Positions 1,159 through 42,267 of a DNA stretch of 64,000 bases are shown piece after piece. The notes under the pieces are model-generated. The model worked only from the letters and a program-made list of their open reading frames with translations. It was not told the DNA's origin and did not search any database. The position numbers were made by a program, and so were the translations under genes. Each line of letters opens with the position of its first letter. The stretch's first letter is position 1. The stretch is from an uncultured virus (IMG/VR IMGVR_UViG_3300037147_000124) (lineage: Duplodnaviria; Heunggongvirae; Uroviricota; Caudoviricetes). Where the stretch lies: the IMG/VR virus record IMGVR_UViG_3300037147_000124, positions 1 through 64,000 of that record; one strand, written 5' to 3'.

Positions 1159-1286
1159 TAGTGGGGCCGGGCAGGATTCGAACCTGCGACCTACGGGTTT
1201 GCTCGGCTTTAGCCAGTTGCTGGTTGACCCAACGTGTGGATTGCCTTCAGTTGGCCCGCTGTTCTAACCGCTGAACTACCGGCCCC
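1159..1286 (-). tRNA. tRNA-like RNA with a 57-nt insert replacing the anticodon loop; identity undetermined
   Basis: Acceptor GGGGCCGG/CCGGCCCC; D-arm GTTC-AGCGGTTA-GAAC; anticodon stem GCGGG/CCCGT; variable AGGTC; T-arm GCAGG-TTCGAAT-CCTGC; 3' end ACTA. Confidence 0.85.
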
Positions 1287-9063: not shown

Positions 9064-9392
9064 ATTCGTGTCTGCCCCTTTGCGTGGCGAATGACCTTGT
9101 TCCCGTACGGGCTCATCTTCTGTTCCTGAGCTGTCAGGTCGTACTTGTGATCCTTCCAGGCCTCGCATGCATGAACAGTTTCAGCATGAACATGGCCATC
9201 CGGGATGTCGCCAAACCAACGCCTCACGTGGCACCCACAGGCCAGTCGGGCCTCAATGCACATCGTCACGACTCGGCGAGTGGCCTTGATCTTGAGCTTG
9301 GGACGACGCGGACACTTGTTCAAATGCTTGAACAGAGGTGTCCTGTCTAAGACCGCACCGCAGTGCGGGCAGTGCTCTCGGCAGCCCTTCAT
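9060..9392 (-). CDS. Cys/His-rich putative zinc-binding protein
   Basis: CPHC...H...C motif; tiled ORF. Confidence 0.55.
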   Translation of the reverse strand: MKGCREHCPHCGAVLDRTPLFKHLNKCPRRPKLKIKATRRVVTMCIEARLACGCHVRRWFGDIPDGHVHAETVHACEAWKDHKYDLTAQEQKMSPYGNKVIRHAKGQTRI

Positions 9393-9826: not shown

Positions 9827-11116
9827 TTAGGAGACCGCCATTGGCGAGTTCCGAAGCTGTGTCGTTACAAACGCCACGGCTTCCTCACGCGTTTTGATCT
9901 TCTCTTCGAGCTGTTCGTCCTCGAGATTGTGCAGAACGAAGCCGAACGCAGGACTGGGCTTATAACCCAGGGCAATCAAGTCATCGCCGTTGAGCAGTAC
10001 CTTGGGATAAGTCCCAGGCAAACCCGCCGCGCTCATGAACTGATCCACACGATGAAATGCCCGTTGGCCCCCGGTGTAAGCCGGCCGCGCGAAGTAATCG
10101 TGCAGCGCCACCTGACGAATCAGGTCATAGTCCGCATCGCGGCGATAGCGCCGCTGTGCTGCCAGGTTCCAGTCCGGGATGCAGCTCCAAACCTGTGCCT
10201 TGGTGATGATGTTAGTGATCTGGGCAGCATCCGCCGTCGAGAACTTCAGACCCAGCAGCGCGTTCTTCCGTGCCGTGGTGCCGAGATCCAGGAACAGCAG
10301 AGACAATGCGATCAGGACGTGATCCTTGACGGCCTGACCGTAGGCGCTGGACCAGGAGATTGCAGGCATCTGGTTGAGGCGACGCAGAACCCTTCCGAAG
10401 TCGGTATCTAGCTCCGGCAGCAGGTAGTCCAGCAGGTTCGAGAGCAGAAGCAGTTCCAGGGCGCGTACGGCCCGGGGCTGGCTCAGCATCGCGATCAGCT
10501 CCTCGCGCTTCCGTTCTCCGCTGATCTCAGCGAGTAAGGGAGCATTGACGCGCATCGCGCCCCAGGTGGGCTCGTCAATCTGGAAGTCCAGCCGGGCGGC
10601 AAATCGGATTGCCCGGAGTAAACGCAGGGCGTCTTCTTCAAAGCGCCGGTTGGGATCCCCGATGCAGCGGATCTTCTTGTGCGCGATGTCCATGACTCCG
10701 CCGGTGAGATCCACCAGCTCACCGGTCTCGATGTCCAGGGCCAGGGCATTGATGGTGAAGTCCCGCCGCTGAACGTCCTCGGCCAGGGTCTTGCTGTAGA
10801 CCACAGCGTCAGGGTGACGGTGGTCAGAATAGGCGTCCTCGGCGCGGAAGGTGGCGACCTCGAAACTCTCCTCATTGATCGTGACGAGAACGACGCCAAA
10901 CTTAGCGCCTACGGGCTTGGAGCAATCTGGGAAGATTGCCATGACCTCGTCAGGCACTGCGTTGGTGACGATGTCATAGTCTTTGGGGAGATTGGCCAGG
11001 ATACGATCTCGAACGCAACCGCCGATCAGGTAGGCTTCTTTGCCGGCCTTGCGTAGGTGGTAGATCAGCTTCTCGACCGCGACCATACGGACGGTCGGTT
11101 GCATTCTGAGGATCAT
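9827..11116 (-). CDS. cca: CCA-adding tRNA nucleotidyltransferase (class II)
   Basis: GGCVRD, DYD, EVATFR, RRDFTINAL, EDALRLLRAIRF; flexible loop present; no poly(A) polymerase GRRF signature. Confidence 0.92.
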   Translation of the reverse strand: MILRMQPTVRMVAVEKLIYHLRKAGKEAYLIGGCVRDRILANLPKDYDIVTNAVPDEVMAIFPDCSKPVGAKFGVVLVTINEESFEVATFRAEDAYSDHRHPDAVVYSKTLAEDVQRRDFTINALALDIETGELVDLTGGVMDIAHKKIRCIGDPNRRFEEDALRLLRAIRFAARLDFQIDEPTWGAMRVNAPLLAEISGERKREELIAMLSQPRAVRALELLLLSNLLDYLLPELDTDFGRVLRRLNQMPAISWSSAYGQAVKDHVLIALSLLFLDLGTTARKNALLGLKFSTADAAQITNIITKAQVWSCIPDWNLAAQRRYRRDADYDLIRQVALHDYFARPAYTGGQRAFHRVDQFMSAAGLPGTYPKVLLNGDDLIALGYKPSPAFGFVLHNLEDEQLEEKIKTREEAVAFVTTQLRNSPMAVS

Positions 11117-11411: not shown

Positions 11412-12626
11412 CTACTCGAGGTCGGTATCGGAGCAGCGGACGGGAATGACCCGTACGCCATGTTCACGCCACATCTGAACCACACAGAGCCTGTCGTCAA
11501 TCGCAAATGCGATCTCCGCTTTGCAGGCCAGCATCTGTTCGAGGATCGTGGCTTTCACATCGACATCGGTGATGTGGGCCGGTTCTTTGCGCATGAACAA
11601 GTGGTCGAACGGCACCATGTGTTTGTCCAGCGACTCCAGGGTCTCGCGACCACAGCAGTTCATGTCGCGGCCGCTGACCAGGATGATCATGAAGCCCAGG
11701 GCACTGAGAGAGTGCAGCCAGTTCAGGATGATCTCGACCGGTTCGTCGTTGATGCACTCCTGCAGGAACTTGTAGTGATCCTTCTTGGCTTTGCCTGTGC
11801 CCTGGCAGATCCCGCATGGCATAGCGCCCGGGTCGTCCAATGCCTTCCCGGTGCCATAACATGGAGTGCAGATCCCGCTCACCAGGTGCTTCCGGTGATC
11901 CAGGTTGAACAGCGTGCCGTCGAGGTCACAGACCACAGCCGGATGGCCGCTCAGATCCAGGCGCCCGCTCAGAAGGTACTGCCGCTCGATCACCGGGCGG
12001 CCGACCTGTCTGCCTTCGAAGCGCATGGCGTCGCGGGCAATGCAATCCGCGATCGGGGTGTCGATGAACTTCACCTCGGCCTTGCGGAAGCACAGCTCTT
12101 CGGCGTAATCGAGCCACATCTGCCGGTGACCCGGGGTCAGGTTGGTGTCGTCGATGATGACATCCCTACCCTGTTCCCGCGCCGCACGGACAATGGCCTT
12201 CTCAGCCTCGATGATGAACTTCTCCTTCGAGGCAGCCCAACGAGGGATGGTCATCCGACGGATGTCGTCCCGGTTGATCCGGACCGCATGCCCGTTGTCC
12301 TGGATGTGCTTGAACGCAACCGTGGACTTGCCGCTCCCGGAAGGGCCGGACAGGATGGTCATTCGGCCAATTGGAGTCGTGCCGACCTTCAGGAAGATCG
12401 CCTTCTCTGCCTCATGTGTCAGCTCACCGCCAACCAGTCTAAGACCAGTCGCACCATCGGGTAACACGTGACGGATGCCTTCCGGCGTCATCACGTATTC
12501 GTACGCCCCGTAGGGCTCGCCGATGGCTTTTACGTCGAGGAACGTGCCGCCAAAGTAGTCCGGGATCTCGATCCGGCCGGTCTTGAATGTTGCTGGTCTC
12601 ATTACTCGTACCTCGTTGCTGTTCAT
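11412..12626 (-). CDS. polynucleotide 5'-kinase / 3'-phosphatase (T4 PseT-like)
   Basis: P-loop GPSGSGKST, INRDDIR, DDTNL; HAD motifs DLDGT, SGR, IDDR. Confidence 0.92.
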   Translation of the reverse strand: MNSNEVRVMRPATFKTGRIEIPDYFGGTFLDVKAIGEPYGAYEYVMTPEGIRHVLPDGATGLRLVGGELTHEAEKAIFLKVGTTPIGRMTILSGPSGSGKSTVAFKHIQDNGHAVRINRDDIRRMTIPRWAASKEKFIIEAEKAIVRAAREQGRDVIIDDTNLTPGHRQMWLDYAEELCFRKAEVKFIDTPIADCIARDAMRFEGRQVGRPVIERQYLLSGRLDLSGHPAVVCDLDGTLFNLDHRKHLVSGICTPCYGTGKALDDPGAMPCGICQGTGKAKKDHYKFLQECINDEPVEIILNWLHSLSALGFMIILVSGRDMNCCGRETLESLDKHMVPFDHLFMRKEPAHITDVDVKATILEQMLACKAEIAFAIDDRLCVVQMWREHGVRVIPVRCSDTDLE

Positions 12627-23328: not shown

Positions 23329-23867
23329 TAGACTCGGTCCTCGAACATGCTGTCGAACGTGCCGCTCCCGAATTCAACATCGGTAGCCAGCTGGTGCAGC
23401 TCATCGGCCGTGAATGGACGGAATGTAGGTGCTGCCGGCCGCGCGACGGTGAAGCTCTTGTCCTGAATGGCGGCGTTCCTACCGCGCTGAGAAACCAGCA
23501 CGCTGGGTACGCTAACCACACCACCGCCGATCAGTCTGCCGTTCATACGGAAGGTGACGTAGCGGATGTTGGTGTCAGCCAAGTTGGTGTGAACTCGCAG
23601 GCCTACCACGCTGCGCGGGAAAGCCTTGCAATCGTAATCCCGCTCCCAGCCGTTGGAAATGCGACGGCGGACCCGGCGGACCCAGGAATCGGCTCCGCGA
23701 ATCTCGCGAGTGAACACGTCCTTGGATCGTGGTAAGAACGATGCTGAGTTGGATGTTGCCACAGCGAGCGGGGCGTTGGCAGCCCAGAGTTGATCGATGA
23801 TGTCGGGAGTGATCCACTCACGAATGGCGCCTCGAACGGCGTCAGAGATTCCTTTGCCTTGGCTCAT
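23328..23867 (-). CDS. hypothetical protein
   Basis: Start MSQGKG after GGAGG. Confidence 0.6.
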   Translation of the reverse strand: MSQGKGISDAVRGAIREWITPDIIDQLWAANAPLAVATSNSASFLPRSKDVFTREIRGADSWVRRVRRRISNGWERDYDCKAFPRSVVGLRVHTNLADTNIRYVTFRMNGRLIGGGVVSVPSVLVSQRGRNAAIQDKSFTVARPAAPTFRPFTADELHQLATDVEFGSGTFDSMFEDRV

Positions 23868-30501: not shown

Positions 30502-30960
30502 TTAGGCCTTATCAGGCGGGCAATTGGTGAGAAACAGGACGACTTCAGTGCAGCGTCGCTTCAGCAGGCCGCGTATAACCTTGAGGCCGGCATGGCACCA
30601 GCTGTGCATCTCATACGCTGCTTCAGTAAAGCGTCCCGCCTTCAGCAGGCGCAGCAGCGTTGAGGTAGCGAAGGCCTCCGTGCCATCGTTGTAGATCCAG
30701 TCCACCAGAGAGTCATACTGCTCCTGGTGAATGGATACAGAGGTCAGAACCAAGGTGTCGACGGCGTGCTCTGCATAGCCAACGTCCGTGACCAGTAGCT
30801 CCGCACCCTCGGGCTGTTCAATTCCATTCGGGTAAGATTCACCGGGAAGTAGGTCGTGACCGTAGCCAATGGACATCTTGCCCTTGGCGTCCGGTGTAGC
30901 GAAGCGCTTGAATCCTTCGTTGCCTTGGATCAGTGCGAATCCTGCAGGTGACGTTTTCAT
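30502..30960 (-). CDS. GH24 lysozyme (endolysin)
   Basis: NEG...D...SIGYGH, QEQYDSLV, STLLRLL, GLLKRR. Confidence 0.9.
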   Translation of the reverse strand: MKTSPAGFALIQGNEGFKRFATPDAKGKMSIGYGHDLLPGESYPNGIEQPEGAELLVTDVGYAEHAVDTLVLTSVSIHQEQYDSLVDWIYNDGTEAFATSTLLRLLKAGRFTEAAYEMHSWCHAGLKVIRGLLKRRCTEVVLFLTNCPPDKA

Positions 30961-30966
30961 GGTCCC

Positions 30967-30995
30967 AGCATGCAGCGCCAGGTGAATGTACCAAA
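30967..30995 (-). promoter_or_regulatory. class II promoter TTTGGTAC-N15-CATGCT (leaderless lysozyme mRNA)
   Basis: ATG 6 nt after the -10-like hexamer; preceded by hairpin GCCGGGG-TGAAAG-CCCCGGC. Confidence 0.65.
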
Positions 30996-31479
30996 GGCCG
31001 GGGCTTTCACCCCGGCTCCTGGCTGAGGAGTTCATTAGCGGCTCTTCATAAGCGTACCTCCGTTGGCAAGCGTGCCAACTACCGGTTTCATGGACGGGAC
31101 CGGCTCCCGACCTGCACTCGTGATCTCTCGTCCGAACATGCAGGGTGATTCCACACAGACTGGTGGCGATGAAACTGAATGCGGTCGACACGCTATCCGT
31201 GATGCGACCAGTCCGCTTACTCTTTGTTACCTGTGTCTCCACTTGCTTCGCTGGTCATCATTTGAAGTGGCGACCAGGGTCCAATTCCCTGTGCCAAATC
31301 TTCGATGCGAAGGGCATACGGCCAGTGTGGCCGTAACAGGTTCCGAACGAAGCGTAACCGGAACCGTCCCCAACTTCATTGTGTCCGTGATGTCCCACCG
31401 GTCCCACACCGCGAGTGCGAGTGCGAGCAGGAACCACAGACAGAGATCAATCAGGCGCATGAATACCCCGATCCACCAG

Positions 31480-31956: not shown

Positions 31957-32352
31957 CTACGCTGCCTGCTCACCCGAATTGGATGACGCCGCAGCCACCG
32001 CAACAGGTCCCTGAGGGGCCTTGCTGATGACTGTGATCGACTCCAGCCGGATGTTGCTGCCGTTGCCGCGCTTGCTGCTCTGCAGCACGCCCTTCGCACG
32101 CACAACGTCGCCCTTCGCAAGGGAGAGGAGCTGCTCGTGGATCAGCGGATCTGCGGACTGCACGTAACGGTCGAAACCAGGCTCGGCCTCGATCGGGATG
32201 CCAACGTACAGGCGGTCGAAGCGGTCCTTCACCGGCTCGCCGGCTGCCATCAGCACGCGGCCTTCGACAGTGGCCTCGACGTGCTTGTCCATCCCGATGC
32301 TGGTGCCCGATGAATCCTTCTGCTCGCGGTACACGGTCTTCGTTCCATACAT
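31957..32352 (-). CDS. possible OB-fold ssDNA/RNA-binding protein
   Basis: VEGRV...LAKGDVVRAKGVL strand pattern; AAGGAGG RBS. Confidence 0.5.
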   Translation of the reverse strand: MYGTKTVYREQKDSSGTSIGMDKHVEATVEGRVLMAAGEPVKDRFDRLYVGIPIEAEPGFDRYVQSADPLIHEQLLSLAKGDVVRAKGVLQSSKRGNGSNIRLESITVISKAPQGPVAVAAASSNSGEQAA

Positions 32353-32421
32353 AGAAAAGGCCCTCCTTGGGCCGGTTGTGTTCTCGTCAGTTGTGGGAAT
32401 ACCGCGTTGAAGCGGTCTCAG

Positions 32422-32751
32422 TTAGAGCTGAGCTGGATCGGGCTCGTGAATCTCGCCCAGGAACAGCATGGAGGCGCTGAATTGGCCTACCGTGCATTCC
32501 GAACAGTTACGGCCGCGATAGGCACGGCCGGTTTCTTCCCCGGAGCGACACAGAATGTCGTCGGTGTGAGACATCTTGTAGTGAGGGCAGGCCTTCTGGA
32601 TGAAGTCTCTGGTCTTGCCCGCTACGGCGCGGCGAAGCTGGGTGCCGGCGGTGAGATCACCCGTCAGTACAACCAGCCGGCCAAGGTCAGTCTGTGGATC
32701 CGTCAGCTCCCGAGGGAGCGTTTGGCGTGGCAGACGTGGCATTCCGTTCAT
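32422..32751 (-). CDS. Cys-containing hypothetical protein
   Basis: tiled ORF. Confidence 0.55.
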   Translation of the reverse strand: MNGMPRLPRQTLPRELTDPQTDLGRLVVLTGDLTAGTQLRRAVAGKTRDFIQKACPHYKMSHTDDILCRSGEETGRAYRGRNCSECTVGQFSASMLFLGEIHEPDPAQL

Positions 32752-33049
32752 TCGATACCTCTTCGTGGCTCTTCAGTTTCACTGCGTGAGGTTCGGTCCA
32801 TGCAATCATCCGCATGTCCAACTCAGAGAGGTCAAGGCAGCGCCCTTCGAAGGTCACATCGAAGATCACCAGGTCAGCAATGTCCTGCAGCTCTGGCTTC
32901 TTGATCCGGATGGTGACGTCGAGGTTGGCTGCGCACTCCACGATGGAGAGAGGCAGGGGAAAGTCCGGATTGCACAGCAGCTGGATAGTGATCCGGCCAG
33001 GTTGATCCGGATCACCACCGAGAAGAGCACTGGCATCCCAGGTCTTCAT
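32687..33049 (-). CDS. hypothetical protein
   Basis: TGATG coupling. Confidence 0.6.
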   Translation of the reverse strand: MKTWDASALLGGDPDQPGRITIQLLCNPDFPLPLSIVECAANLDVTIRIKKPELQDIADLVIFDVTFEGRCLDLSELDMRMIAWTEPHAVKLKSHEEVSNERNATSATPNAPSGADGSTD

Positions 33050-33528
33050 CAGGCTGCCTTATCCAGGGGCTCGAGGTACGACAGGCTGATGCGGAAAGCA
33101 TCGGCGATCTTGGTGAACGATCCCGGCTTGCTTTCCAGCACATCCGGGTCCGCCATTAGGTCGGTCCAGACGATCTCGAGAGCCTCCTTGTTGGAGTGAA
33201 TCCGCTTGGCCAGGGCCAGCATGGGGAATGGCGACAGCAGGTCGTTGACTTCGGTCTTGGCCTGCTCCATGGCGGTGTTGAAGCCGAGGTTCCGGGTGGA
33301 GACGAACAGTTCGTTCGCCCTGAACTGGATCAGGTACATCGAGACGATTGCCTTGGCCCGAGGGTCGATGATGATCTGCATGATGGCCGCCTTGATGGCG
33401 TCTTCGAAGTTGTCGGGATTGGCCTTGAGACGTTCAATGGTCTCGGTGATGACTTCCCCGATGTAACAGCTGCCGGTCACAACGCGGTCGACGGACTCGA
33501 AGATTCCGAGGGCTGAGGGTTTCGACAT
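33049..33528 (-). CDS. hypothetical protein
   Basis: GGAG RBS; strong codon bias. Confidence 0.7.
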   Translation of the reverse strand: MSKPSALGIFESVDRVVTGSCYIGEVITETIERLKANPDNFEDAIKAAIMQIIIDPRAKAIVSMYLIQFRANELFVSTRNLGFNTAMEQAKTEVNDLLSPFPMLALAKRIHSNKEALEIVWTDLMADPDVLESKPGSFTKIADAFRISLSYLEPLDKAA

Positions 33529-33744
33529 GATGAAGCTCCATGACCTGTTCGAGGTCAGTGCTGCAGGTTAGTAAACCGAGGTGGCGGAGACGGCCGCGTT
33601 GGTCGCGGTGTTGTTGGACTTCAGGAAGGCGGCGAGGATAAGCGCAGTGATGACCCCGGCGATTATCCGAACAAGGATCGAGGCGATGAACGTAGCCATG
33701 GACTGCTCCAGCTTGGATTTGACAACCGATGAATCTGAAACGGG

Positions 33745-33762
33745 ATAGGGTGAAACACTTAG
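33745..33762 (-). promoter_or_regulatory. class I motif copy (CTAAGTGTTTCACCCTAT)
   Basis: recurring motif. Confidence 0.65.
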
Positions 33763-33834
33763 AGACCCGACGCCGGGACAGGAAGGAGAATGGACCCATC
33801 CCGGCGCTCCAGCACACTGAGTGCGCTGGAAAAC

Positions 33835-34086
33835 TTAGCGCCGCTTGGCCTGCCGCTTCTGCGGCTTGCCGAACAGCACCTCGGAGACCGCCGCGTCGAA
33901 AGCGCGCGTGAAGGGCATGGTCTTGAGGGTGTGCTGCAGCTTGGGAGCCAAGCCTGGCAGCGCAGTGTGCGCGGAACGAACCACGGTGTTGCGACCAACA
34001 TCGGTGGTAGCCGCCGCAAGGTTGTGGACAAAGCCGTCACGAATCAGCTGACGGCCATCGGGGTTGAGGGTGGCAACATTGAGCAT
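33835..34086 (-). CDS. hypothetical protein
   Basis: GGAGG RBS. Confidence 0.65.
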   Translation of the reverse strand: MLNVATLNPDGRQLIRDGFVHNLAAATTDVGRNTVVRSAHTALPGLAPKLQHTLKTMPFTRAFDAAVSEVLFGKPQKRQAKRR

Positions 34087-34099
34087 GGAACTACCTCCG

Positions 34100-34415
34100 T
34101 GGGATAAACAACATCAGGTGAGTGGAGCAGGGCTCAACACTCAGAACTATGCGGCGTCAACACTAGGCTCGTAAGACAGTCGGCCAGCCCCGAAGGGCCC
34201 CGTAATGTCCGGAGAGGGTTTGCGTATGTAGCCGCTTCACATGCTGAATCTGACATCTTGCCGTGCCGTACCAGATCGGTAGTCCCGCCACAAGAACCGG
34301 CTCAAGTCCGGGTTATGACGGCCGCCTGGGCAGCGCTGTCGCTAGTCAAGATTCGAGGGACATATCTCGCCCTCATTGCAGGTGGAAAGGGTCGGGGTGA
34401 TTGGCTCACCCCTTG
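34100..34415 (-). ncRNA. candidate structured RNA A (contains duplicated motif, copy 1)
   Basis: No convincing ORF; hairpins GGGGTGA/TCACCCC, GAGGG/CCCTC and a C(UUCG)G loop; ~105-nt motif shared with 35273-35372. Confidence 0.55.
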
Positions 34416-34805
34416 AAGCCTTACAGCTTGGCCGGCGGCGTGGAACGCACCGGATTGACCACAACAGGCTTGGGGCCTGTGTAGTCCGTCCCGTACTCAC
34501 GACGGAACGAGGTTGGCATACAGCCAGCCAGCATGGTGCGCTGACTGGTCTCAAGCCGCCGCGCAAAACCTGCGGTGGCGCAACGGGGCGTAACTGCATG
34601 ACGAACAGCTGCCATGGCAATCTCCTTGAAGCGTTGAATTGTGGGTGGGCGTTACAGGATTGAAACTACCGGCTCTGCCAGGGCAGGACCGGGATGTCGG
34701 GGAAGTCGTTGATCAGCTCTTCGATTGAGCCAACGTAGCGATGAAGCCGGCCGCCACAGAGGACGGCCAGCTCACCAGCAGGCGACATGAATGCCGCGGT
34801 GGCCA

Positions 34806-35228
34806 CTAGAACCGAACCCAGTGAGGACGGATCGTGCTGTCAGCACTGAGGAATTCCTCATGGAATGAACCACCGAAGCGGCAGGTGATGGCATAGTCCA
34901 CGAACTCCTTGGCCTCTCGAAGCGAGGCTGTCGGAACGATCCGGCGAACGTGCTTGATAGCCACGATCTTGTTATGCCGCATACTGTCGAAGGTCTGGAT
35001 GAAGATGGCCAGGCTCTTCTGCGCATCCGAGGTCAGCGCTTCCAGCGGATTGCCGGGAAAGACGGCAGGCGGAGGAGTGGGAAAGCCGAGCATGAGGTTC
35101 TGAGCGAACGCCATGGTGGAACGAGCTTGGGGCTCGTCGAGACCCTCGACTGTGAGGTCGAAGTGCGAGGGCGCACCGGCCGGAGCGAAAGGCGCTTCCG
35201 ACCGAGAGAGGTGAATTGAACCGAGCAT
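34806..35228 (-). CDS. protein with ribosomal protein L7/L12 C-terminal-like domain
   Basis: KIVAIKHVRRIVPTASLREAKEFVD. Confidence 0.65.
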   Translation of the reverse strand: MLGSIHLSRSEAPFAPAGAPSHFDLTVEGLDEPQARSTMAFAQNLMLGFPTPPPAVFPGNPLEALTSDAQKSLAIFIQTFDSMRHNKIVAIKHVRRIVPTASLREAKEFVDYAITCRFGGSFHEEFLSADSTIRPHWVRF

Positions 35229-35272
35229 GGATGCTCTCCTTGTTGCAGGGTGTTGAAACAAACGGTGGTGCA

Positions 35273-35372
35273 GTGAGCGGAGCCAGGCTCAACGCTCGAA
35301 ACTTGCGGCCCTGTACCCGACAGGGCCTGCAGTGGTGCGACCGCGGGCGTCAGAGATACACCCAGGGTTTGC
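35273..35372 (-). ncRNA. candidate structured leader RNA B (duplicated motif, copy 2)
   Basis: Stem GAGCG/CGCTC covaries with GAGTG/CACTC in copy 1. Confidence 0.55.
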
Positions 35373-35420
35373 TACGTGGAGAATCAGTAGAAAGGTTGGA
35401 GGATGGGGGTAGAGAAACCC

Positions 35421-35438
35421 ATCGGGTGAAACTCTTAG
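35421..35438 (-). promoter_or_regulatory. class I motif copy (CTAAGAGTTTCACCCGAT)
   Basis: recurring motif. Confidence 0.65.
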
Positions 35439-35722
35439 GCGTGGGCACACTGTACGGCTTGAACGCCGTACTGCGTAATCACGAAGGCAGTCCAGGGCTT
35501 GACACGATCAAGAAGAGCCTGCAGCTGATCCCGGACAGCGAGATAGAAGGGGCCCATGCACAGCCTGAGTCCTTCAACAGCGGTGGCCTGAGCGTTGAGA
35601 TAATCTCCAAGCGCTTCATACTTCAGAGCTTCCTCGAAGTACAGCTCACCACGGGTCTTGGCCATCGACTTGATGGCCCTGCTAACGCAGAGCATGTGCT
35701 CTTCGGTTGGGGTGCGGTACAT
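35435..35722 (-). CDS. hypothetical protein
   Basis: AAGGAGG RBS before MYRTP. Confidence 0.65.
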   Translation of the reverse strand: MYRTPTEEHMLCVSRAIKSMAKTRGELYFEEALKYEALGDYLNAQATAVEGLRLCMGPFYLAVRDQLQALLDRVKPWTAFVITQYGVQAVQCAHA

Positions 35723-35771
35723 AGTCCCTCCTTTCAAGGGTGTAAACGCAAAAGTTCGGCGGCGTCAGAGA

Positions 35772-35954
35772 TCAAACGGAAGGAGCGAGGATCTCGTCTA
35801 CAAGAGCACGAAGCTCAGCTAAACGATCCTGGTTATTGTTCAACCAGGCAATGAAGACCTCTTCCTTCCACTGAGGGTCAGTCAGAGAACTGACTGGACC
35901 CTGAGTCGCTGATTCCGGTATACCCAACTGCTCGTTGGTGGGTTCGATCTGCAT
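35772..35954 (-). CDS. hypothetical protein
   Basis: GGAGG RBS before MQIEP. Confidence 0.6.
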   Translation of the reverse strand: MQIEPTNEQLGIPESATQGPVSSLTDPQWKEEVFIAWLNNNQDRLAELRALVDEILAPSV

Positions 35955-36229
35955 ACTGCCTCCGTTCAAAGCTTGAGTGGGGCTGTGAGTACAGCCCATA
36001 AGGGATAGCCCTTAGGGTGATTGCTATATATAGATAGGCACTGAATCCACAACGGACTATCTGCAGGTTGTCTTACACCATGCATGTTATAGCTGTAATT
36101 GGGCTTACACTGCCTTTATGGGCACAGACCAGGTCTCTCCGTCCTATCAGACATCAGGAAGCTCACGCGTGCGCGCGCTCCAAAGCTCTGCTAAGCAGGC
36201 TAACCTGCTGATCTGGCTATGGTTATGCT

Positions 36230-36530
36230 GTGATCCTGTGGAGTGGGCTCTGAATGCCTGTTGCGCTAGCACTACTGCATAGCTGAGCATGCTCCAAAGA
36301 GCCCGCCTCTCGGCATCCGCCTGTGCGGATGCGAGATGCTGGCGGAGGAGCGACCCCCGGAGGGGTGGCGACTACATGTCAGTGCGACCTGTGAGTTCAC
36401 GTTGGACGCCCAGGTTTCCCCGGTCAACGCCCAGCGCTACTGTCACAGACACTGCGCTTGGAGCGGTATGCGCTCCCTCAGCCACAGGATTGTCCTGCAG
36501 CTGAGGCAGAGCGTACTGCTCTGCCCTTGA
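36230..36530 (-). ncRNA. candidate multi-helix RNA C directly downstream of the polymerase gene
   Basis: 9-bp closing helix ATCCTGTGG/CCACAGGAT enclosing five or more stems, with GAAA and UCCG tetraloops. Confidence 0.65.
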
Positions 36531-36544
36531 ATCAGGTGGTGCGA

Positions 36545-39500
36545 TTAGAACACTACGTCGGCGAGTTCTCCGGCTGAGACTGCTTCGGCCAGGTTGGCCT
36601 TGAAGTCGGAGCGGAGTTCAGGGATGGCCTCGGCGATGACGATGACGCCGCCGGCAGACATCGAGTAATAGCCATCCGGCAATGTCGGATGAGCGGTTAC
36701 TGACAGCTGCGAGTCGTTGTCCACATCATGCACGTGGCCATTGGTTGCGCGTACCAGGCGATGGACGGAGGTGCCCTTGAGCATCTCCTTCACCTTGTAC
36801 TTGAGGTGGATGAACGCGACCTGACCGGTCAGGCCCAGTTCCTCCATGCAGTCCATCAGCTCGTTGAGCATCCAGTTGGGGACGCCGTCACCTACGCTGA
36901 TGGTCTTGCCGTCCTCGGACACCAGGGCCTCGGACTCCATCGAGTACACCTTGTTGAGCCACTCGACTGCGATCGAGCGACGCACTTCAGGCGACCAGGC
37001 GCCGCCGCTGATGGAGAGCTTGACGCCCTCCCCTTCGGAGGTGAACTGGTTGAGGTAGAAGTCCCTGAGACCGAGGTGATGCAGTGTGGTGCTGCTCACG
37101 ATACGGCCTTCGGCATCCTTCACATCGATCGGCTCATCCCAGCCATTGGCGATGTTGTCATACGCATCCTCAGACAGCTCGCCCGTGAGGGACTTGGCTG
37201 CTTCGAACTGCGCACGCCACCAGACGCGCAACGCTTTGACGACGTCGGTGATGACATCGCTGCCGGGATAGGCCATGAGCAGCTGCAGAGGCAGCGGCTT
37301 CTTGAAGCTGTGCTCGAGCTGACGGGATTCCTCCATGATTCCCTCATAGTGGTCCTTCAGCTCTTCCAGAGCAGCGCAGACCTCGGTACGGACCAGCAGG
37401 TAGTTGCCTGCTTCGATCCGGTCCTTGGGTGCACGGCCCTGGCGGACGTAGGATGCCGGGAAGATGAGAGTCTTCTCCGACAGCTTGGCCTCCTGGCACA
37501 GTTCGGTCACCATCTTCTTGTTGCCCTTACCCTGCTGCAGGTAGTCGATGACCATGTCCGAGTTGCTCGCTGCGCGCTTGCACAGGAAGGGCTGGCGCAC
37601 CTTCATGAACGTGATGCACAGCTGGACGAAGTCCTCCACCTCCGGCTTGTAGTCCACGGGGATGAATTCCCAGAACCACTCCGGGCTGTTGATCTTGACG
37701 TCTTCCAACGACATGGCATGGAAGCCCTTCGGCACGATGTATGTGCCGTTGATGAGGGAGTCCAGGATCACGACCACGTTGTCGCCCGACAGCATGTTGT
37801 CGAGCGTGAGGCGGTTGATGAAGGTACCCAAGCTCTCACGATACTGCGTGAAGTGCTTGAGGTCCCGACGGAAGCAGTTCCAGTTCCACTCGTCCCCGAT
37901 ACCCTCATGGGTGAGGCGGTTACGTGCGGCCCAGTGGCTGTCCTTCTTCTCTTCAACCGAGATCTTCGGCTGCTTCGGATACTCCTGGATCTTGGCTGCA
38001 ACTCGGAGGACATACACCGAGTTCCAGAAGACCCAGATCGAGTCATCCATATCACCACCGTTGAGATAGCTCAGCTGTTCAGCGATCCGTTCGAGCAGGA
38101 AGCAACGGCCTTGGCCCTTGTACTTCTTCAGCTCTGCCGGGATGTAGTTGAGGAATACTAATGCTTCTGCACTGCAGGCATTGGGATTACGACCTGCTGT
38201 CACCAACACACCGTCTGGTGCATCCGGCATGCAGTTGACGAAGACAGGAATGCCCAAGCGATCCGAGCACATCTGAGCACGTGCCATGATGTGATCCGGA
38301 ACCTTGGACAGGGTGAGATCCACGATGCGCTCATCGTCGACGAATACGGTCGGCGGTGGTGCGACGTAGACACGACGCGCCCACTCATGAGGCATGGGCA
38401 CACGGCCCCGACGTAAGTCGAGGATGTTGTCGAACAGGTGACGAGTGACGCGACGGAAGCCCACAGGCATAGCCTTGGTTCCGATCCCGTCCTCCGCCAT
38501 GCGCACCAGCGCCCAGCGGTTCTCGCTCTCATCGTTGCAGGAGTTGACGAATGCACTGATCTCATCGAGCAGCTTGCCTTCGTCGCTGCCGAACAGGATA
38601 GCCGCCGCACGGTCCATATACTTGATACCAGTGGTGGCTGCCAAGCCCTTGGCACCCAGGCCCATGTTGCCCATGGTCTGGTTGTCGAGGGTGAGGTCAT
38701 GCTCCTCAGCATCCGAGAGTGCACCCAGGAAGACGCGGTCATCCACGAAGCGAACCTCCTTCTTCGAACCGAAGAGATAGAGGTCGTAGCTGCGCATGTG
38801 CGGCATCTTCCAGTAAATGCCCTTGCCTTCGCCGAACTCGCCGACGAGGGTAAGCGCCTTGTTGAAGTACCCGGGGATGTTGGAGATACCCATCCCATCG
38901 ATGGTGGCGGTTTCAGCTGCGTTGAAACGGGTCATGTCCGCATCGAGAATGCGGATAACCCGGCCGTTGTCCAGCTCGATCTCGTAGGCGGTGCCTTCGG
39001 GAACGATCGTACGGTCAATGATGTGACCCCGCATCGAGGACTGATGCGGTGCCAGGAAGCGGCGCAACCGCTTGGCTGCCTTCGCGTCACTGGATACCCA
39101 GATACCCAGATCCTTGAAGCTGCGTGCCTTGCAGTTGTCGGATACGAAGAGAGCGGTGCCCTCATCGATCACGTTGCCGTAGATGGGGACGTAGCGAATG
39201 CCCGTCTGCTTGTCGGTCCAGCCGGAGCGCACCAGCGACCAGGCCTTGTTGGCCATGTGCTTGGTGGCGTTCTTGCCGGATGCTTCGAAGCTGACGAAGC
39301 CGTAGGTGACGCCTTCTGCCAGGAGGTCATCGAGAGCCTGACGGGTCTCGCTGTCATCGATGGCAGTCTTCGAGTCGAAGGATGCGCCTTCCTTGCGGAT
39401 ACGGCGCGTGATCTCCTTCAGGTTGACCTCACCCTCAGCACCGTGGGATACGGCGCTCAGCACCAGCTGGAATGCCAGCTTGCTGGTGGGTTCGGTTGGG

Positions 39501-39643
39501 GTAACGGCTTCTGCGACTGCGACTGCGGCCGCTCCAAAGCTCTCTGAAGTGATCGGTGACGCTGCAACCACTTCGTTGACAACGATACGGGCGATGAAGC
39601 GACCAGTCTTGGGGTCACGAGCTGCTACGGTTCTCTGAGACAT
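36545..39643 (-). CDS. single-chain two-barrel RNA polymerase, YonO / cellular RdRP-like
   Basis: Colinear RdRP-type motifs: IDGMGIS, GEGKG, LDNQ, LRRGRVPMP, GRNP, LNGGDMDDSIWVFW, LGTFIN, IDYLQQG; AAGGAG RBS. Confidence 0.8.
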   Translation of the reverse strand: MSQRTVAARDPKTGRFIARIVVNEVVAASPITSESFGAAAVAVAEAVTPTEPTSKLAFQLVLSAVSHGAEGEVNLKEITRRIRKEGASFDSKTAIDDSETRQALDDLLAEGVTYGFVSFEASGKNATKHMANKAWSLVRSGWTDKQTGIRYVPIYGNVIDEGTALFVSDNCKARSFKDLGIWVSSDAKAAKRLRRFLAPHQSSMRGHIIDRTIVPEGTAYEIELDNGRVIRILDADMTRFNAAETATIDGMGISNIPGYFNKALTLVGEFGEGKGIYWKMPHMRSYDLYLFGSKKEVRFVDDRVFLGALSDAEEHDLTLDNQTMGNMGLGAKGLAATTGIKYMDRAAAILFGSDEGKLLDEISAFVNSCNDESENRWALVRMAEDGIGTKAMPVGFRRVTRHLFDNILDLRRGRVPMPHEWARRVYVAPPPTVFVDDERIVDLTLSKVPDHIMARAQMCSDRLGIPVFVNCMPDAPDGVLVTAGRNPNACSAEALVFLNYIPAELKKYKGQGRCFLLERIAEQLSYLNGGDMDDSIWVFWNSVYVLRVAAKIQEYPKQPKISVEEKKDSHWAARNRLTHEGIGDEWNWNCFRRDLKHFTQYRESLGTFINRLTLDNMLSGDNVVVILDSLINGTYIVPKGFHAMSLEDVKINSPEWFWEFIPVDYKPEVEDFVQLCITFMKVRQPFLCKRAASNSDMVIDYLQQGKGNKKMVTELCQEAKLSEKTLIFPASYVRQGRAPKDRIEAGNYLLVRTEVCAALEELKDHYEGIMEESRQLEHSFKKPLPLQLLMAYPGSDVITDVVKALRVWWRAQFEAAKSLTGELSEDAYDNIANGWDEPIDVKDAEGRIVSSTTLHHLGLRDFYLNQFTSEGEGVKLSISGGAWSPEVRRSIAVEWLNKVYSMESEALVSEDGKTISVGDGVPNWMLNELMDCMEELGLTGQVAFIHLKYKVKEMLKGTSVHRLVRATNGHVHDVDNDSQLSVTAHPTLPDGYYSMSAGGVIVIAEAIPELRSDFKANLAEAVSAGELADVVF

Positions 39644-39741
39644 GTGGTTCTCCTTTGTCCAGATCTCCACGATCTGAACGGCTATGCCAGTCGGGTAACT
39701 GGCGAGTTGTGGTTGTGAGTTGGGGGAGCAGGTCTATGCGC

Positions 39742-39924
39742 TTACCCCTGCCACGGGAAGTTGACATTGCTTACCCACGCCTCGTGGTCTTCCTTCTGCT
39801 TCTGAAGGCGTGCGGCGTATGCGACGTTCGACTCGACAGGCGTAGCTGGCTTATCGGCTGGGTACACATACAGAAGGAGTGCGCTAACGACGAGGAAACA
39901 AACGATGAAGAATGCGATCAACAT
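39742..39924 (-). CDS. single-pass membrane protein
   Basis: AAGGAG RBS; MLIAFFIVCFLVVSALLLY. Confidence 0.65.
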   Translation of the reverse strand: MLIAFFIVCFLVVSALLLYVYPADKPATPVESNVAYAARLQKQKEDHEAWVSNVNFPWQG

Positions 39925-40011
39925 GGTGCTTTCTCCTTTCAAGAGAAAGCCCACAGTCATGAAGACCTGTGGGCAGTTAGAGTGAGGTTGACGAACAGAC
40001 TGTTGGTCAGA

Positions 40012-40539
40012 CTACTTGGCGGACTGAGCGATCAATGCGATCAGGTCAGCCTTGGACATGTCGTTGAGCTGCGCTTCGAGGTTGGTCATCTCCACACCCG
40101 GGGTGCGGGCGATGGATGCTGCGGACGTGGCCTTGCCCCACTTGCTGAGCTTGCCGCTGATGCTCTCGCCGATGGATGCGGACTTCGACAGCATGTAGCC
40201 GGTGGCGTGGAGGGTGACTGGCACAGCCAGCACTTCCACTTTGCCGACGACCGGAGCGGTCTTCTCTGCAGCGGTCTTGATGATGCTGCCTGTCCAGTTG
40301 ATGAAGCGGTTGCTGACGCTGCCGCTGATGGCCTGGTCCAGGGTCTGCTTGGTGGCGATGGGTGCCACGACTGCTACTGTGGTTGCGGCAACCTGGGTGG
40401 TTGCCTGGGCGATTGCTGCTGCGATGATGGTCTGGAGCTGCTCTGCTGTCATGGTCACGGTGTTCTCTTTGGTTGCCTTGGTGGACTTCTTGGAAGTTGA
40501 GTTGACGGTCGCGGTTGCTGCCTTGATGGAAACTGCCAT
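40012..40539 (-). CDS. Ala/Thr/Lys-rich protein, first gene of the left arm
   Basis: AAAGGAGAACCAC RBS region, shared with the polymerase gene. Confidence 0.75.
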   Translation of the reverse strand: MAVSIKAATATVNSTSKKSTKATKENTVTMTAEQLQTIIAAAIAQATTQVAATTVAVVAPIATKQTLDQAISGSVSNRFINWTGSIIKTAAEKTAPVVGKVEVLAVPVTLHATGYMLSKSASIGESISGKLSKWGKATSAASIARTPGVEMTNLEAQLNDMSKADLIALIAQSAK

Positions 40540-40783
40540 GGTGGTTCTCCTTTGTACGGGTTGGGGTTATTGATTAGGACCGGGTGGGCTCGAACCTAAG
40601 TCGAGGGTCACTCAGTACCACTGATTACCTGGTGTCTCTATCCCCAAACCTGTCCGCCCCTCGTGATGGCTCAAGGGACCTTTCCCACTCAGCGTGCGGT
40701 GAATACCCCACGTAATCGCCGCATGCCAGCCATCGCTCAAAAGCTGTCCAGGATGCAAACAGAAAAGGCCTCGCGTGTGGGCC

Positions 40784-40812
40784 TTTGGTAGTCGGGCGCC
40801 CTCCCTGACACT
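40784..40812 (+). promoter_or_regulatory. class II promoter TTTGGTAG-N15-GACACT (leaderless)
   Basis: ATG 6 nt downstream; no SD sequence. Confidence 0.65.
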
Positions 40813-40818
40813 CGAGTT

Positions 40819-41148
40819 ATGAGCAAGGCAATCAAGCACGATCCCATCAGCACCAGCACGGCGAAGTTCAAACTGCGGGACACCTACGCACCGGGCAAGT
40901 TCGGCGTGTACCACGCCGATGGCGTCATCGTCAGCAGTCCGGTCATGCAGATCGACGGCAAGTACGTGGCGATCTCCGATGAAATCTTCGTTGAAACCCA
41001 TCGTCTGCTCTTCGACATCACCTCCCTGGGTACAGACGGACTGATGATCCAGGTCTACGAGAAGACGATGCCGGCAACCCTGTGGCAGCGCCTTCGGGCA
41101 GGCTGGCTTCGTCTCTTTGAACCGAGTGCTTGCCTGACGGGGTGCTGA
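40819..41148 (+). CDS. hypothetical protein
   Basis: First plus-arm ORF; codon bias. Confidence 0.7.
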   Translation: MSKAIKHDPISTSTAKFKLRDTYAPGKFGVYHADGVIVSSPVMQIDGKYVAISDEIFVETHRLLFDITSLGTDGLMIQVYEKTMPATLWQRLRAGWLRLFEPSACLTGC

Positions 41149-41322
41149 TGACCTTCTCTGATCTCATCCGCAGTCCGAAGTTCCTGCCCACCGTCATGGT
41201 GGCGCTGTCGGTGGCAGCATCCTGCCGGTACGCCCTCCAGGCGGACTGGCGCCACGCCATCTACTGGATGGCCTCTGCAGTTTTGGTTTCAGCAGTCACG
41301 TACTAGAAGGAGTTCCCTAACC

Positions 41323-41688
41323 GTGGACTATTTGAAGATCGCCGAGGATGCCATGCGTGTCTTCGACAACCACTACGATTACGAGATCGATCTGCTCAAT
41401 CGGAACAAGGTCATGCCCGTCCTGATTGCAAAATCGGGGAAAGACAAAAACGCTGCATTCGACGAGGATGACCTGGCTCACATGTTCTTTTACCTGGAGA
41501 CATCCAACTCGATCCCCAAGGATGCTGTTCTGGCCATGCCTCACGGATGCCCCTTTCAGACGGAGCGCGCGAAGTGTGTCTATGACTGGGGCCTCAACAC
41601 CAGCCACCACAGTGGCCACGTCGTTCTCTATGACGCCGCTCAGGTTGATGCGTTCCGCTCGGCCGCGGCATTCAACATCAAGTGGTAA
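41323..41688 (+). CDS. hypothetical protein
   Basis: AAGGAG RBS; GTG start. Confidence 0.7.
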   Translation: MDYLKIAEDAMRVFDNHYDYEIDLLNRNKVMPVLIAKSGKDKNAAFDEDDLAHMFFYLETSNSIPKDAVLAMPHGCPFQTERAKCVYDWGLNTSHHSGHVVLYDAAQVDAFRSAAAFNIKW

Positions 41689-41751
41689 AACTGCGCCACC
41701 TAACCAGTTTCTGATTTCCAAATCAGAAACATCACAAATACCAGGAGACTT

Positions 41752-42267
41752 ATGACCCTCAATCACTACTTGCTGAACATCACCATCACCGACGGCATGT
41801 TGAACTCCGACAAGTCCGACGCCAACGACATCGAGGTCGCCGCGTTGGCCACCGACCAGGAAGATGCGCAGAAGATCGTGCTCGCGTTCTACACCCAGTC
41901 CGGCCTGTCCTCGAAGGTGATCGACGGCGTGCACACCCTGTATCGCACGGCCGACCTGCAGAAGCCGGGTTCGATCCGCACGGTGCGCGTCAACACCATC
42001 GTCGATCTGCCGATCGCCACAGTGACCGAGGCCAGCTCGGCTCCCGTCGTGAAACCGGCCGTGAAGGCCCCCACTGCCAAGGAGAAGAAGGCAGCTGCTG
42101 CAGCTGAAGCCGCCGCGGGCGCGCAGGAGAAGACAGAAGATCCGATCGAGACCCAGACCAAGGAGACACCAGGCGAAACCGGTGATGCAGGCAAGATCAC
42201 CGAGGGAACTGGCTTCGGCGTAGGCACCCAGACGGACGCGCAGGAAGGCGCTACGGAACAGAAGTAA
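41752..42267 (+). CDS. hypothetical protein with low-complexity acidic tail
   Basis: AGGAG RBS. Confidence 0.75.
   Translation: MTLNHYLLNITITDGMLNSDKSDANDIEVAALATDQEDAQKIVLAFYTQSGLSSKVIDGVHTLYRTADLQKPGSIRTVRVNTIVDLPIATVTEASSAPVVKPAVKAPTAKEKKAAAAAEAAAGAQEKTEDPIETQTKETPGETGDAGKITEGTGFGVGTQTDAQEGATEQK

Follow-up and report, generated by a model that had tools for sequence, protein, structure and literature searches.

A two-barrel RNA polymerase gene of large phages with a structured RNA at its 3' side and B boxes flanking its operon

Does a phage that encodes its own single-chain RNA polymerase also carry an RNA and a DNA signal dedicated to that enzyme? The question is raised by a minus-strand locus of an uncultured virus, located within bases 1-64000 of the 74-kb IMG/VR virus record IMGVR_UViG_3300037147_000124 (this 64,000-nt stretch is called the window hereafter), where a polymerase gene is followed directly by a strongly folded region lacking open reading frames (ORFs). 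An earlier note, made from the letters alone, had proposed a YonO/RNA-dependent RNA polymerase (RdRP)-like enzyme with a GGDxDD motif, accompanied by its own RNA and by a dedicated DNA motif termed class I. Judged by sequence comparison, the locus is a conserved cassette in which a B box is followed by the polymerase, then by a covarying RNA and finally by another B box, and the combination of polymerase and RNA appears to be new. The comparative data uphold the outline of the earlier proposal, except that the dedicated motif is a 16-nt B box and not the class I sequence; the hammerhead-like core in the RNA of the relatives was outside what the note had described.

The polymerase

The polymerase lies in an open frame at 36545-39670 (-) of 1041 codons, which reaches up to a GTG at 39670; the database protein P0002 corresponds to residues 10-1041 of this frame, and its start, M10, is at window position 39643. 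As a single sequence it had no match in Pfam or PHROGs, by tblastn against 50,697 phage records or by phmmer against PDB sequences. Using an exhaustive HMMER search, we identified 93 cluster representatives at E<=1e-3, including 20 at E<=1e-30. The protein contains the sequence NGGDMDDS, of which G529, D531, D533 and D534 are invariant in 41/41 aligned homologues; K191, R195, K274, G275 and P487 are likewise invariant among the 41 aligned full-length members. The top PDB matches to a profile of 41 homologues were three QDE-1 entries (E 0.001-0.007), with YRQPN...GGDxDD aligned on the catalytic segment RSP...GGDYDGD and a one-residue gap in the acidic motif. The metal-binding acidic triad of two-barrel RNA polymerases (RNAPs), located in the second barrel, has the form DxDGD in QDE-1 and msRNAP. 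Because of the one-residue gap relative to GGDYDGD of QDE-1, the acidic spacing of the phage enzyme is DxDD, not DxDGD.

We used AlphaFold (AF2) to generate a model of the polymerase (predicted local distance difference test, pLDDT, 89.6; predicted template modelling score, pTM, 0.84). The best Foldseek matches of the model were QDE-1 (E 3.6e-13) and RDR2 (E 6.6e-12), and among the matches shown, ranks 1-21 were all QDE-1 or RDR2, with E-values from 3.6e-13 to 1.5e-8. These were followed by phage P74 gp62, crAss-like phage phi14:2 gp66 and P32 gp64, and then by bacterial beta' subunits with weak E-values. The best structural matches (PDB 7y7q, 5fsw, 2j7n and 7eu1; E 3.6e-13 to 1e-9) cover about 900 aligned columns, although sequence identity is 10-13%, template modelling (TM) scores are near 0.4, the acidic motif is one residue shorter and the context is that of a phage. 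By the overall fold of the model, the protein belongs with the two-barrel RNA polymerases typified by QDE-1, RDR and YonO. The earlier identification of a YonO/RdRP-like polymerase with GGDxDD was borne out by the invariant motif, the QDE-1 profile match and the QDE-1 and RDR2 structures that head the Foldseek ranking.

The structured RNA and its hammerhead-like core

We fetched 6 viral and 60 metagenomic loci encoding relatives of the polymerase, together with one locus of a distant subfamily. These loci were located mainly for polymerase subfamilies matching two peptide patterns, and many are near-duplicates, forming 22 downstream clusters at 97% identity and about six clades. A long non-coding stretch follows the polymerase stop in every clade. 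In clades 2-6, whose polymerases are 27-42% identical to that of the window, a domain denoted D1 begins 5-25 nt after the stop and consists of a helix, P1, enclosing hairpins P2-P5. Among 40 loci with at least 200 nt of downstream DNA, 36 contained the D1 sequence pattern, the misses being L002 and L003 (the window clade), L176 and L193; in total, 14 distinct D1 sequences were found. Further along, a GC-rich hairpin (Y) plus a B box lie 3' of the polymerase in 33/36 loci with at least 900 nt of downstream DNA.

Covariation in D1 was assessed using a MAFFT alignment of 11 distinct sequences, 28 proposed pairs and 500 shuffles. Paired cells accounted for 96.7% (shuffled mean 88.4%), and 12/28 pairs were changed on both sides (shuffled mean 3.8); for every covariation measure, the observed value was reached by 0/500 shuffles. 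When the partner columns were slid against each other, pairing fell to 29-51% of cells. P3 and P4 carry most of the covariation, and the G-U pairs (for example, 11/11 at columns 9-118) assign the RNA to the polymerase-sense strand. A covariance model (CM R1) built from clades 2-5 recovered the most distant clade, with polymerases ~27% identical (L169 and L171; 23 bits, E 2e-4), while an Rfam search of 8 related loci at E<=5 returned two chance-level matches only. These sequence comparisons support physical linkage of a structured RNA to the polymerase family in divergent phages, and the linked RNA is a new, strongly covarying family. The expectation that a covarying RNA is conserved 3' of GGDxDD homologues holds for the relatives, in which D1 covaries beyond all shuffles; the window and L003 are without D1.

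The junction strands of D1 are, in order, P2 (closed by G-C), GAAA, P3 (closed by A-U), U or C, the 6-bp P4, and CUGAUGA or CUGACGA; the single nucleotide before P4 is U in clades 2-5 and C in clade 6. The hammerhead consensus comprises C3-U4-G5-A6-N7-G8-A9, G12-A13-A14, A15.1-U16.1, H17 and G10.1-C11.1. This conserved core is present in 14/14 distinct D1 sequences, the only varying core positions being N7 (U/C) and H17 (U/C), and covariation is seen in both P3 (stem III) and P4 (stem I). With a strict descriptor, 1.5 Mb of sequence yielded 43 matches, of which 38 were at D1 with stems of 6-11 bp and the other 5 had stems of 4-6 bp; the D1 domains of L148, L156 and L165 fail it through single stem mismatches. 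The three-helix arrangement of a hammerhead was not found: A9 runs into hairpin P5 and helix P1 and not into stem II, and the helix by G12 is the closed hairpin P2. The extra helix P1 (plus P5) is inserted between A9 and G10.1, clade 6 is without P5, and all three canonical stems are capped.

A type II hammerhead of canonical form, its stem II merely short, was rejected: the nucleotides after A9 covary within P5, and their pairing with the CC that precedes GAAA is not conserved. No description of a hammerhead opened between A9 and G10.1 was found in open-access papers and bioRxiv. The D1 motif is probably a hammerhead derivative, as its sequence suggests, and not a member of the family, with putative self-cleavage activity. 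In the sections of Perreault et al. 2011 (PMC3088659) that bear on the comparison, type II hammerheads are common in bacteria, may have a stem II of only one or two pairs, and flank prophage genes, where they may process long phage transcripts. The relatives' RNAs share with the type II hammerheads described there the CUGANGA and GAA strands, A15.1-U16.1, H17 and loop-closed stems I and III, as well as a position between genes of a phage transcript. They differ in that stem II is the closed hairpin P2 and the chain exits between A9 and G10.1 through P1 (plus P5), in the absence of an Rfam model match, and in the fusion of the motif to several hundred further conserved nucleotides.

Beyond D1, the RNA of the relatives contains further conserved helices, including GNRA-capped hairpins (by eye), then a motif A, a variable insert and hairpin Y; the helices P7 and P9 of a domain denoted D2b are mostly invariant in aligned columns. 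At the Y position, the relatives have CUCGCG..CGCGAG-type hairpins with variable outer pairs, followed by G/U-rich tracts (by eye). In L136 (4479-4808, +), an ORF for a 109-aa HNH endonuclease (PF01844, E 1.6e-11) lies inside the RNA between motif A and Y; the insert is also present in L141, L150-L152, L154 and L165, and the same spot is the variable insert of other clades. In the distant polymerase subfamily, L193 (5183-6400) has ~400 nt of non-coding sequence and two small ORFs, followed by a degenerate GC hairpin and a B-like box, with no D1 by pattern scan or CM R1. A D1 pattern scan of viral contigs gave 6 matches, of which four were known polymerase loci; the other two, L188 and L189, were discarded as D1 loci, being mutually identical over the stretch, without a polymerase by tblastn and without resemblance to D1.

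In the window, the minus strand is ORF-free from the polymerase stop to the ATG at 35954. The first 391 nt after the stop (36155-36545, -) fold with a z-score of -5.7, and 0/100 shuffles folded as well; over the whole 601 nt, z is -6.5 on the minus strand compared with -3.6 on the plus strand. Where the earlier note had described an ORF-free multi-helix element of ~300 nt, the structure and the absence of ORFs stand, but the size is ~390 nt. An Rfam search of 33500-36700 at E<=1 gave no match, and Rfam 15 applied to the whole window at the gathering threshold identified tRNA only. The window clade comprises two sequence variants only: L003 is 96% identical over the structured RNA, with an indel, and its differences lie mainly in loops and in indels outside stems (by eye).

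The 5' part of the window RNA is a different hairpin chain from that of the relatives, and the GAAA, UH and CUGANGA strands are absent. By eye, the tip of the GAAA-capped hairpin resembles P5 of the relatives (UGA-CCGGG-loop-CCUGG-G), in a region that CM R1 does not recognize, and some 5' hairpins recall their P4 (6-bp stem, 5-nt loop). Motif A, hairpin Y, the B box, GUGUAA-type loops and a motif D are common to the window and the relatives; the window tract after Y is not T-rich. The 196 nt at 35955-36150 are unstructured (z -0.05), and the leader between the B box and the next gene contains GUGUAAGCCCA-type (GUGUAA-type) loops, a hairpin at 35995-36017 that we take, by eye, to be like the 11-nt receptor, and motif D (TCAAGCTTTG) at 35967-35976. 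From these sequence features, the window lineage appears to have kept the body of the RNA and lost its core.

Three metatranscriptome assemblies include pieces of this region, at >=99% identity and without joints. Contigs of X17 cover 28/30 bins of 32000-42000, including a piece at 35983-36362 on the folded RNA, those of X19 cover 36157-36455 only, and those of X24 include nothing of these bins; as contigs only, from runs found with this very region, they carry no information on level, strand or ends. We also rejected the idea that a group I or group II intron interrupts the polymerase gene. The downstream genes come with ribosome-binding sites of their own, the alignment with homologues reaches the C-terminus, no Rfam intron model matched and the RNA contigs show no joints.

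B boxes, gene order and genome setting

A pattern derived from the downstream (D) copies of the B box unexpectedly matched sites 5' of the polymerase operon in many loci, where the box is part of an upstream element, U. This element also holds a conserved hairpin with the loop UYGAGCCC and is conserved for ~75 nt beyond the box, and its hairpin stem covaries (CG 8, GC 6, UG 2). A GC-rich palindrome or hairpin precedes the U and D boxes alike, at a similar distance to the box. R2, a sequence-only model of 22 U copies, finds other U copies, including a new one in L148, while Rfam gave no match on the U region (40450-40900) at E<=10.

In the 214,300-bp record G001, the pattern has only two matches at 0 mismatches (123278 and 127777, corresponding to window 36128 and 40627), and in G002 only two at <=1 mismatch (82294 and 86425), in both cases flanking the polymerase on the polymerase strand; these counts, and that for G003 given below, are partly circular because the pattern was refined on the same sequences. 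An exact 14-mer B-box scan of viral contigs returned 119 stretches, almost all of them chance, and the other motifs only at known loci. On this sequence evidence, the predicted role of the B boxes is most likely that of private promoters or promoter-proximal sites: they have the look of private promoters because a short conserved box occurs at two same-strand sites, each before a gene block, beside one polymerase family. Several other identities were rejected. A many-copy phage promoter does not fit a box present twice in 214 kb, none of the sigma-70, sigma-54 and ECF readings fits (by eye), and U and D as paralogous RNAs are not supported by R2. In clade 3, upstream elements such as L147:1568-1631 contain GCUUC-GCGC-GAGGC-UGAAAAU-GCUUC, in which GAGGC can pair with either GCUUC (by eye); these alternative hairpins are mutually exclusive, lie just 5' of the B box and are not conserved in clade 2.

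Over the polymerase stop codon, the earlier note had placed a degenerate class I motif, which did not hold up. The sequence at 36535-36548 has 2 mismatches to the template CTCACNNCACCACC, the only similar sequence found, and the window contains 12 such matches where 8.85 are expected. A 12-mer, ATCTCTGACGCC, occurs exactly three times on the minus strand (23838-23849, 35346-35357 and 35761-35772), the latter two copies being intergenic, and may be the motif class meant by the earlier reader; a similar sequence, TCTTCTGACGCC, lies 3' of the RNA in L169, L171 and L175. The claim of two more structured elements sharing a covarying motif survives in part. The sequence GTTGAGCCYGGCTCCRCTCAC occurs twice (coordinates in the table; 0.02 expected from shuffles) as a shared 21-nt hairpin whose outer stem has one compensatory change, GAGCG/CGCUC versus GAGUG/CACUC (read from sequences and folds), but the intergenic stretches with these copies have z-scores of only -2.1 and -0.4. 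The description of a 'run of structured RNAs' over 2.5 kb was likewise overstated, as most of 34100-35950 consists of small coding genes with ribosome-binding sites.

On the minus strand, the cassette is arranged as element U with its B box, two small genes, the polymerase, the 390-nt folded RNA ending in Y, the second B box, a leader without significant structure and small genes including one for a hydrophobic protein, with a lysozyme gene further down. The six small genes downstream of the RNA had no significant Pfam match; the product of the last, 43-aa gene is a small hydrophobic protein, counterparts of which are encoded directly 3' of the RNA in related loci. The 140-aa protein (34806-35228, -) resembles the C-terminal domain of ribosomal protein L7/L12 weakly and below threshold (E 3.8e-4; 21.2 bits, the cut-off being 25.9). 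Coordinates of the features are collected below.

Table 1. Positions of the polymerase gene, RNA elements, boxes and neighbouring genes in the window
Feature	Position	Strand	Basis or remark
QDE-1/YonO-like two-barrel single-chain RNA polymerase gene, 1032 aa from ATG at 39643	36545..39643	(-)	ORF, profile, fold
Codons of D531-x-D533-D534 in LNGGDMDDS	38042..38053	(-)	Coordinates computed from ATG 39643
ORF-free, strongly structured RNA, hairpin series ending in motif A and GC hairpin Y	36155..36544	(-)	z -5.7
Hairpin GGGCGU-UGA-CCGGG-GAAA-CCUGG-GCGUCC, GAAA tetraloop	36404..36432	(-)	Sequence and minimum free energy fold
Motif A (GAGCUUUGGAGC)	36177..36188	(-)	360-450 nt after polymerase stop in most related loci
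GC-rich hairpin Y (CGCGC-GCAC-GCGUG)	36164..36177	(-)	Pairing by eye
Downstream B box (GGACGGAGAGACCUGGU), one copy in arm	36128..36144	(-)	Only 0-mismatch match on window minus strand
Leader between B box and next gene	35955..36127	(-)	Not beyond shuffles in structure
Upstream element U, 5' of first polymerase-operon gene	40560..40700	(-)	Model R2, 37.6 bits, E 2.9e-10
Second B box (GAUAGAGACACCAGGU), within U	40627-40642	(-)	Pattern match
Small genes of 175 aa and 72 aa separating U from polymerase	39742..40539	(-)	No Pfam family
Six small genes 3' of RNA: 60, 95, 140, 64, 83 and 43 aa	33568..35954	(-)	Ribosome-binding sites
Copy 1 of small repeated hairpin (GUUGAGCCUGGCUCCGCUCAC)	35273..35293	(-)	5' of gene starting at 35228
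Copy 2 of small repeated hairpin	34118..34138	(-)	5' of gene starting at 34086

The G001 record is 100% identical to the window over the locus, with a completeness estimate of 99%; the source phage genome is ~214 kb. Sequencing runs containing the stretch are labelled as peat or permafrost metagenomes. IMG/VR classes both G001 (214 kb, the L002 record) and G002 (178 kb, the L005 record) as provirus. Between ~40540 and position 1 the genes lie on the minus strand; starting at 40819 they lie on the plus strand. The minus-strand arm encodes lysozyme (30502-31242), a DNA ligase-like protein, ThyX, polynucleotide kinase-phosphatase, thioredoxin, a CCA-adding/poly(A) polymerase-type enzyme and a T4 Rnl1-type RNA ligase. 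Three of these genes form an RNA-repair-type set on the minus strand: the Rnl1-like ligase (7855-9168), the CCA-adding/poly(A) polymerase-family enzyme (9827-11116) and the polynucleotide kinase-phosphatase (11412-12626). Enzymes of the RNA-repair type act on 2',3'-cyclic phosphate and 5'-OH ends, the ends left by a hammerhead; the window phage carries these genes, yet its own RNA is without the hammerhead core. The Rfam tRNA match is at 1163-1285 (-), with 55.8 bits and model positions 1-71 spread over 123 nt, whereas ARAGORN called none anywhere in the window; an insert of ~50 nt, possibly an intron, may interrupt a tRNA gene here.

Proposed mechanism, alternatives and significance

We propose that transcription of the polymerase gene runs on into the folded RNA, which forms a 3' extension, and that hairpin Y closes the transcript. 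In the related phages, the hammerhead-core domain is predicted to cut the transcript ~70-95 nt after the stop, which would leave a polymerase mRNA with a hairpin-protected end and release the downstream multi-domain RNA with a 5'-OH. In the window lineage, which would have kept the hairpin chain and the 3' motifs and lost the catalytic core, the RNA would serve only as a structural or regulatory 3' element. The B boxes would be read by the phage polymerase, one driving its own operon and the other the long downstream operon. As a whole, this account of a polymerase cassette with a 3' RNA, Y closing the transcript and B boxes as start signals is our best explanation, and we put it forward tentatively, at a little under an even chance. 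A more far-reaching version is doubtful. It holds that the core is a new hammerhead permutation with a four- or five-way junction entered and left between A9 and G10.1, fused to an RNA of 400-800 nt and self-cleaving to a 5'-OH, that the B boxes are private promoters, and that the cassette is mobile among large phages, with the window copy a catalysis-less descendant.

Several results weigh against the proposed mechanism. The descriptor gave 0 matches on either window strand, so that the hammerhead core was not found in the window RNA, and CM R1 identified nothing credible in the window and L003; as the window RNA is without D1 and its core, the ribozyme part of the mechanism cannot apply to the window. 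In the relatives, P1 is without covariation, 7/9 of its pairs never varying, and this invariance leaves P1 unsupported either way. No Rfam hammerhead model matched the 8 whole loci (E<=5) or 131 nt around D1 of L136 (E<=10), and we know of no active hammerhead with a helix inserted between A9 and G10.1. A consensus terminator scan of 33400-41000 gave no site at 36164-36177, the position of Y. The B-box part is weakened by the circularity of the counts and by G003, of the L193 lineage, whose two matches at <=1 mismatch (36137 and 88968) are not next to the polymerase and whose downstream box is degenerate and 1.1 kb away behind two ORFs. R2 finds no D copy at E<=1, and U and D therefore share only the short box and the GC palindrome. 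Finally, a polymerase-dependent promoter before the polymerase's own operon requires another first source of polymerase.

Two alternatives give the RNA an intact function of its own. It could work in trans as a separate partner of the polymerase (as cofactor, decoy, template or regulator), with the B box an RNA-level site in the 5' leader and the 3' RNA; a polymerase-RNA pair of this kind was the second option offered by the earlier note. The strict co-location of RNA and polymerase across enzymes that are 27-42% identical is in keeping with this, as are the transcribed-strand position of both B boxes, the conserved junction nucleotides and GNRA-type loops that suggest a defined three-dimensional fold (by eye), and the fact that the closest solved structures are enzymes copying RNA as well as DNA. 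Binding is, however, only postulated, the 5' domain is wholly different in the window clade and in the others, which is odd for the cofactor of a conserved enzyme, and in one clade the RNA is interrupted by an ORF for an HNH homing endonuclease (E 1.6e-11). The phage relative that has been characterised, YonO, is moreover a DNA-dependent RNAP in the account of its activity in PMC5467207, and we regard a trans-acting partner as unlikely. We rate slightly lower a long cis-regulatory leader, riboswitch-like or acting by antitermination, in which Y would be a conditional terminator timing the small hydrophobic proteins and the lysozyme. The multi-helix junction with conserved unpaired nucleotides would suit such a leader, and in related loci a G/U-rich tract follows Y and small hydrophobic-protein genes lie directly 3' of the RNA, the lysozyme gene of the window being at 30502-31242. 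Yet a length of 390-850 nt is far above known riboswitch size, a B box and a 170-270-nt leader intervene between Y and the next gene, the terminator scan misses Y, the window tract after Y is not T-rich, and no Rfam riboswitch or leader family matched.

The two remaining alternatives deny the window RNA such a role. The 390-nt region might be a decaying remnant, with hairpins that do no more than stabilise the polymerase mRNA or terminate it: neither D1 nor the catalytic core is present, and the clade has only two variants in which selection on structure could show. A z-score of -5.7 would be extreme for a remnant, however, L003 differs mainly in loops and by indels outside stems (by eye), and the window retains motif A, Y and the B box; decay is improbable, on a par with the cis-acting leader. 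As for a DNA-level element, such as an origin or a packaging or recombination site flanking a mobile polymerase cassette, with hairpins that are incidental or cruciforms, the B boxes are indeed two short direct repeats, each with a GC palindrome, that flank the polymerase operon; G001 and G002 are classed as proviruses by IMG/VR, and an HNH homing endonuclease is inserted in one clade. Nevertheless, G-U pairs are retained in the covariation, and on the opposite strand they would read C-A; folding is better for the minus than for the plus strand, and the hammerhead core, too, is specific to one strand. As a weak further point, the region is found in RNA-library assemblies. A purely DNA-level element is very improbable.

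The nearest precedent for the proposed transcription of a downstream operon by the phage's own enzyme is YonO of the Bacillus prophage SPbeta (Forrest et al. 2017, PMC5467207). In the parts of that paper that concern its transcription, YonO starts a single long late operon at a site preceding an unannotated non-coding RNA, which lies between the polymerase region and the genes YonO transcribes, and its promoter sequence was still to be determined in 2017; we found no later report of it in open-access papers and bioRxiv. Compared by the descriptions given there, both enzymes are phage single-chain polymerases of ~100 kDa that belong to the two-barrel superfamily, the acidic catalytic triad of the present one being putative. 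Unlike YonO, the present enzyme has QDE-1 and RDR2 as its closest solved folds and the motif GGDxDD in place of DxDGD; its RNA begins directly after the polymerase stop and, in the relatives, has a hammerhead-like core, and the promoter role of the B box is predicted.

Among structured RNAs, GOLLD and ROOL, both Rfam entries, are large RNAs from phages or prophages that have no known function. The present RNA resembles them in its several hundred nucleotides, many helices and phage origin; it differs in that no Rfam family matched the window or the 8 related loci and in being tied to a polymerase, directly 3' of its stop. In open-access papers and bioRxiv, we found no paper on an RNA conserved beside YonO/QDE-1-like phage polymerases.

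Phage single-chain two-barrel RNA polymerases are barely characterised, and a 16-nt box that is found across very divergent members and flanks the gene in 2/3 genomes searched provides a testable promoter candidate. Should the core of the relatives prove to cleave, it would add to the architectures known for the best-studied ribozyme and show how a phage separates its polymerase mRNA from the downstream RNA, for which the core-less version of the window offers a natural comparison.

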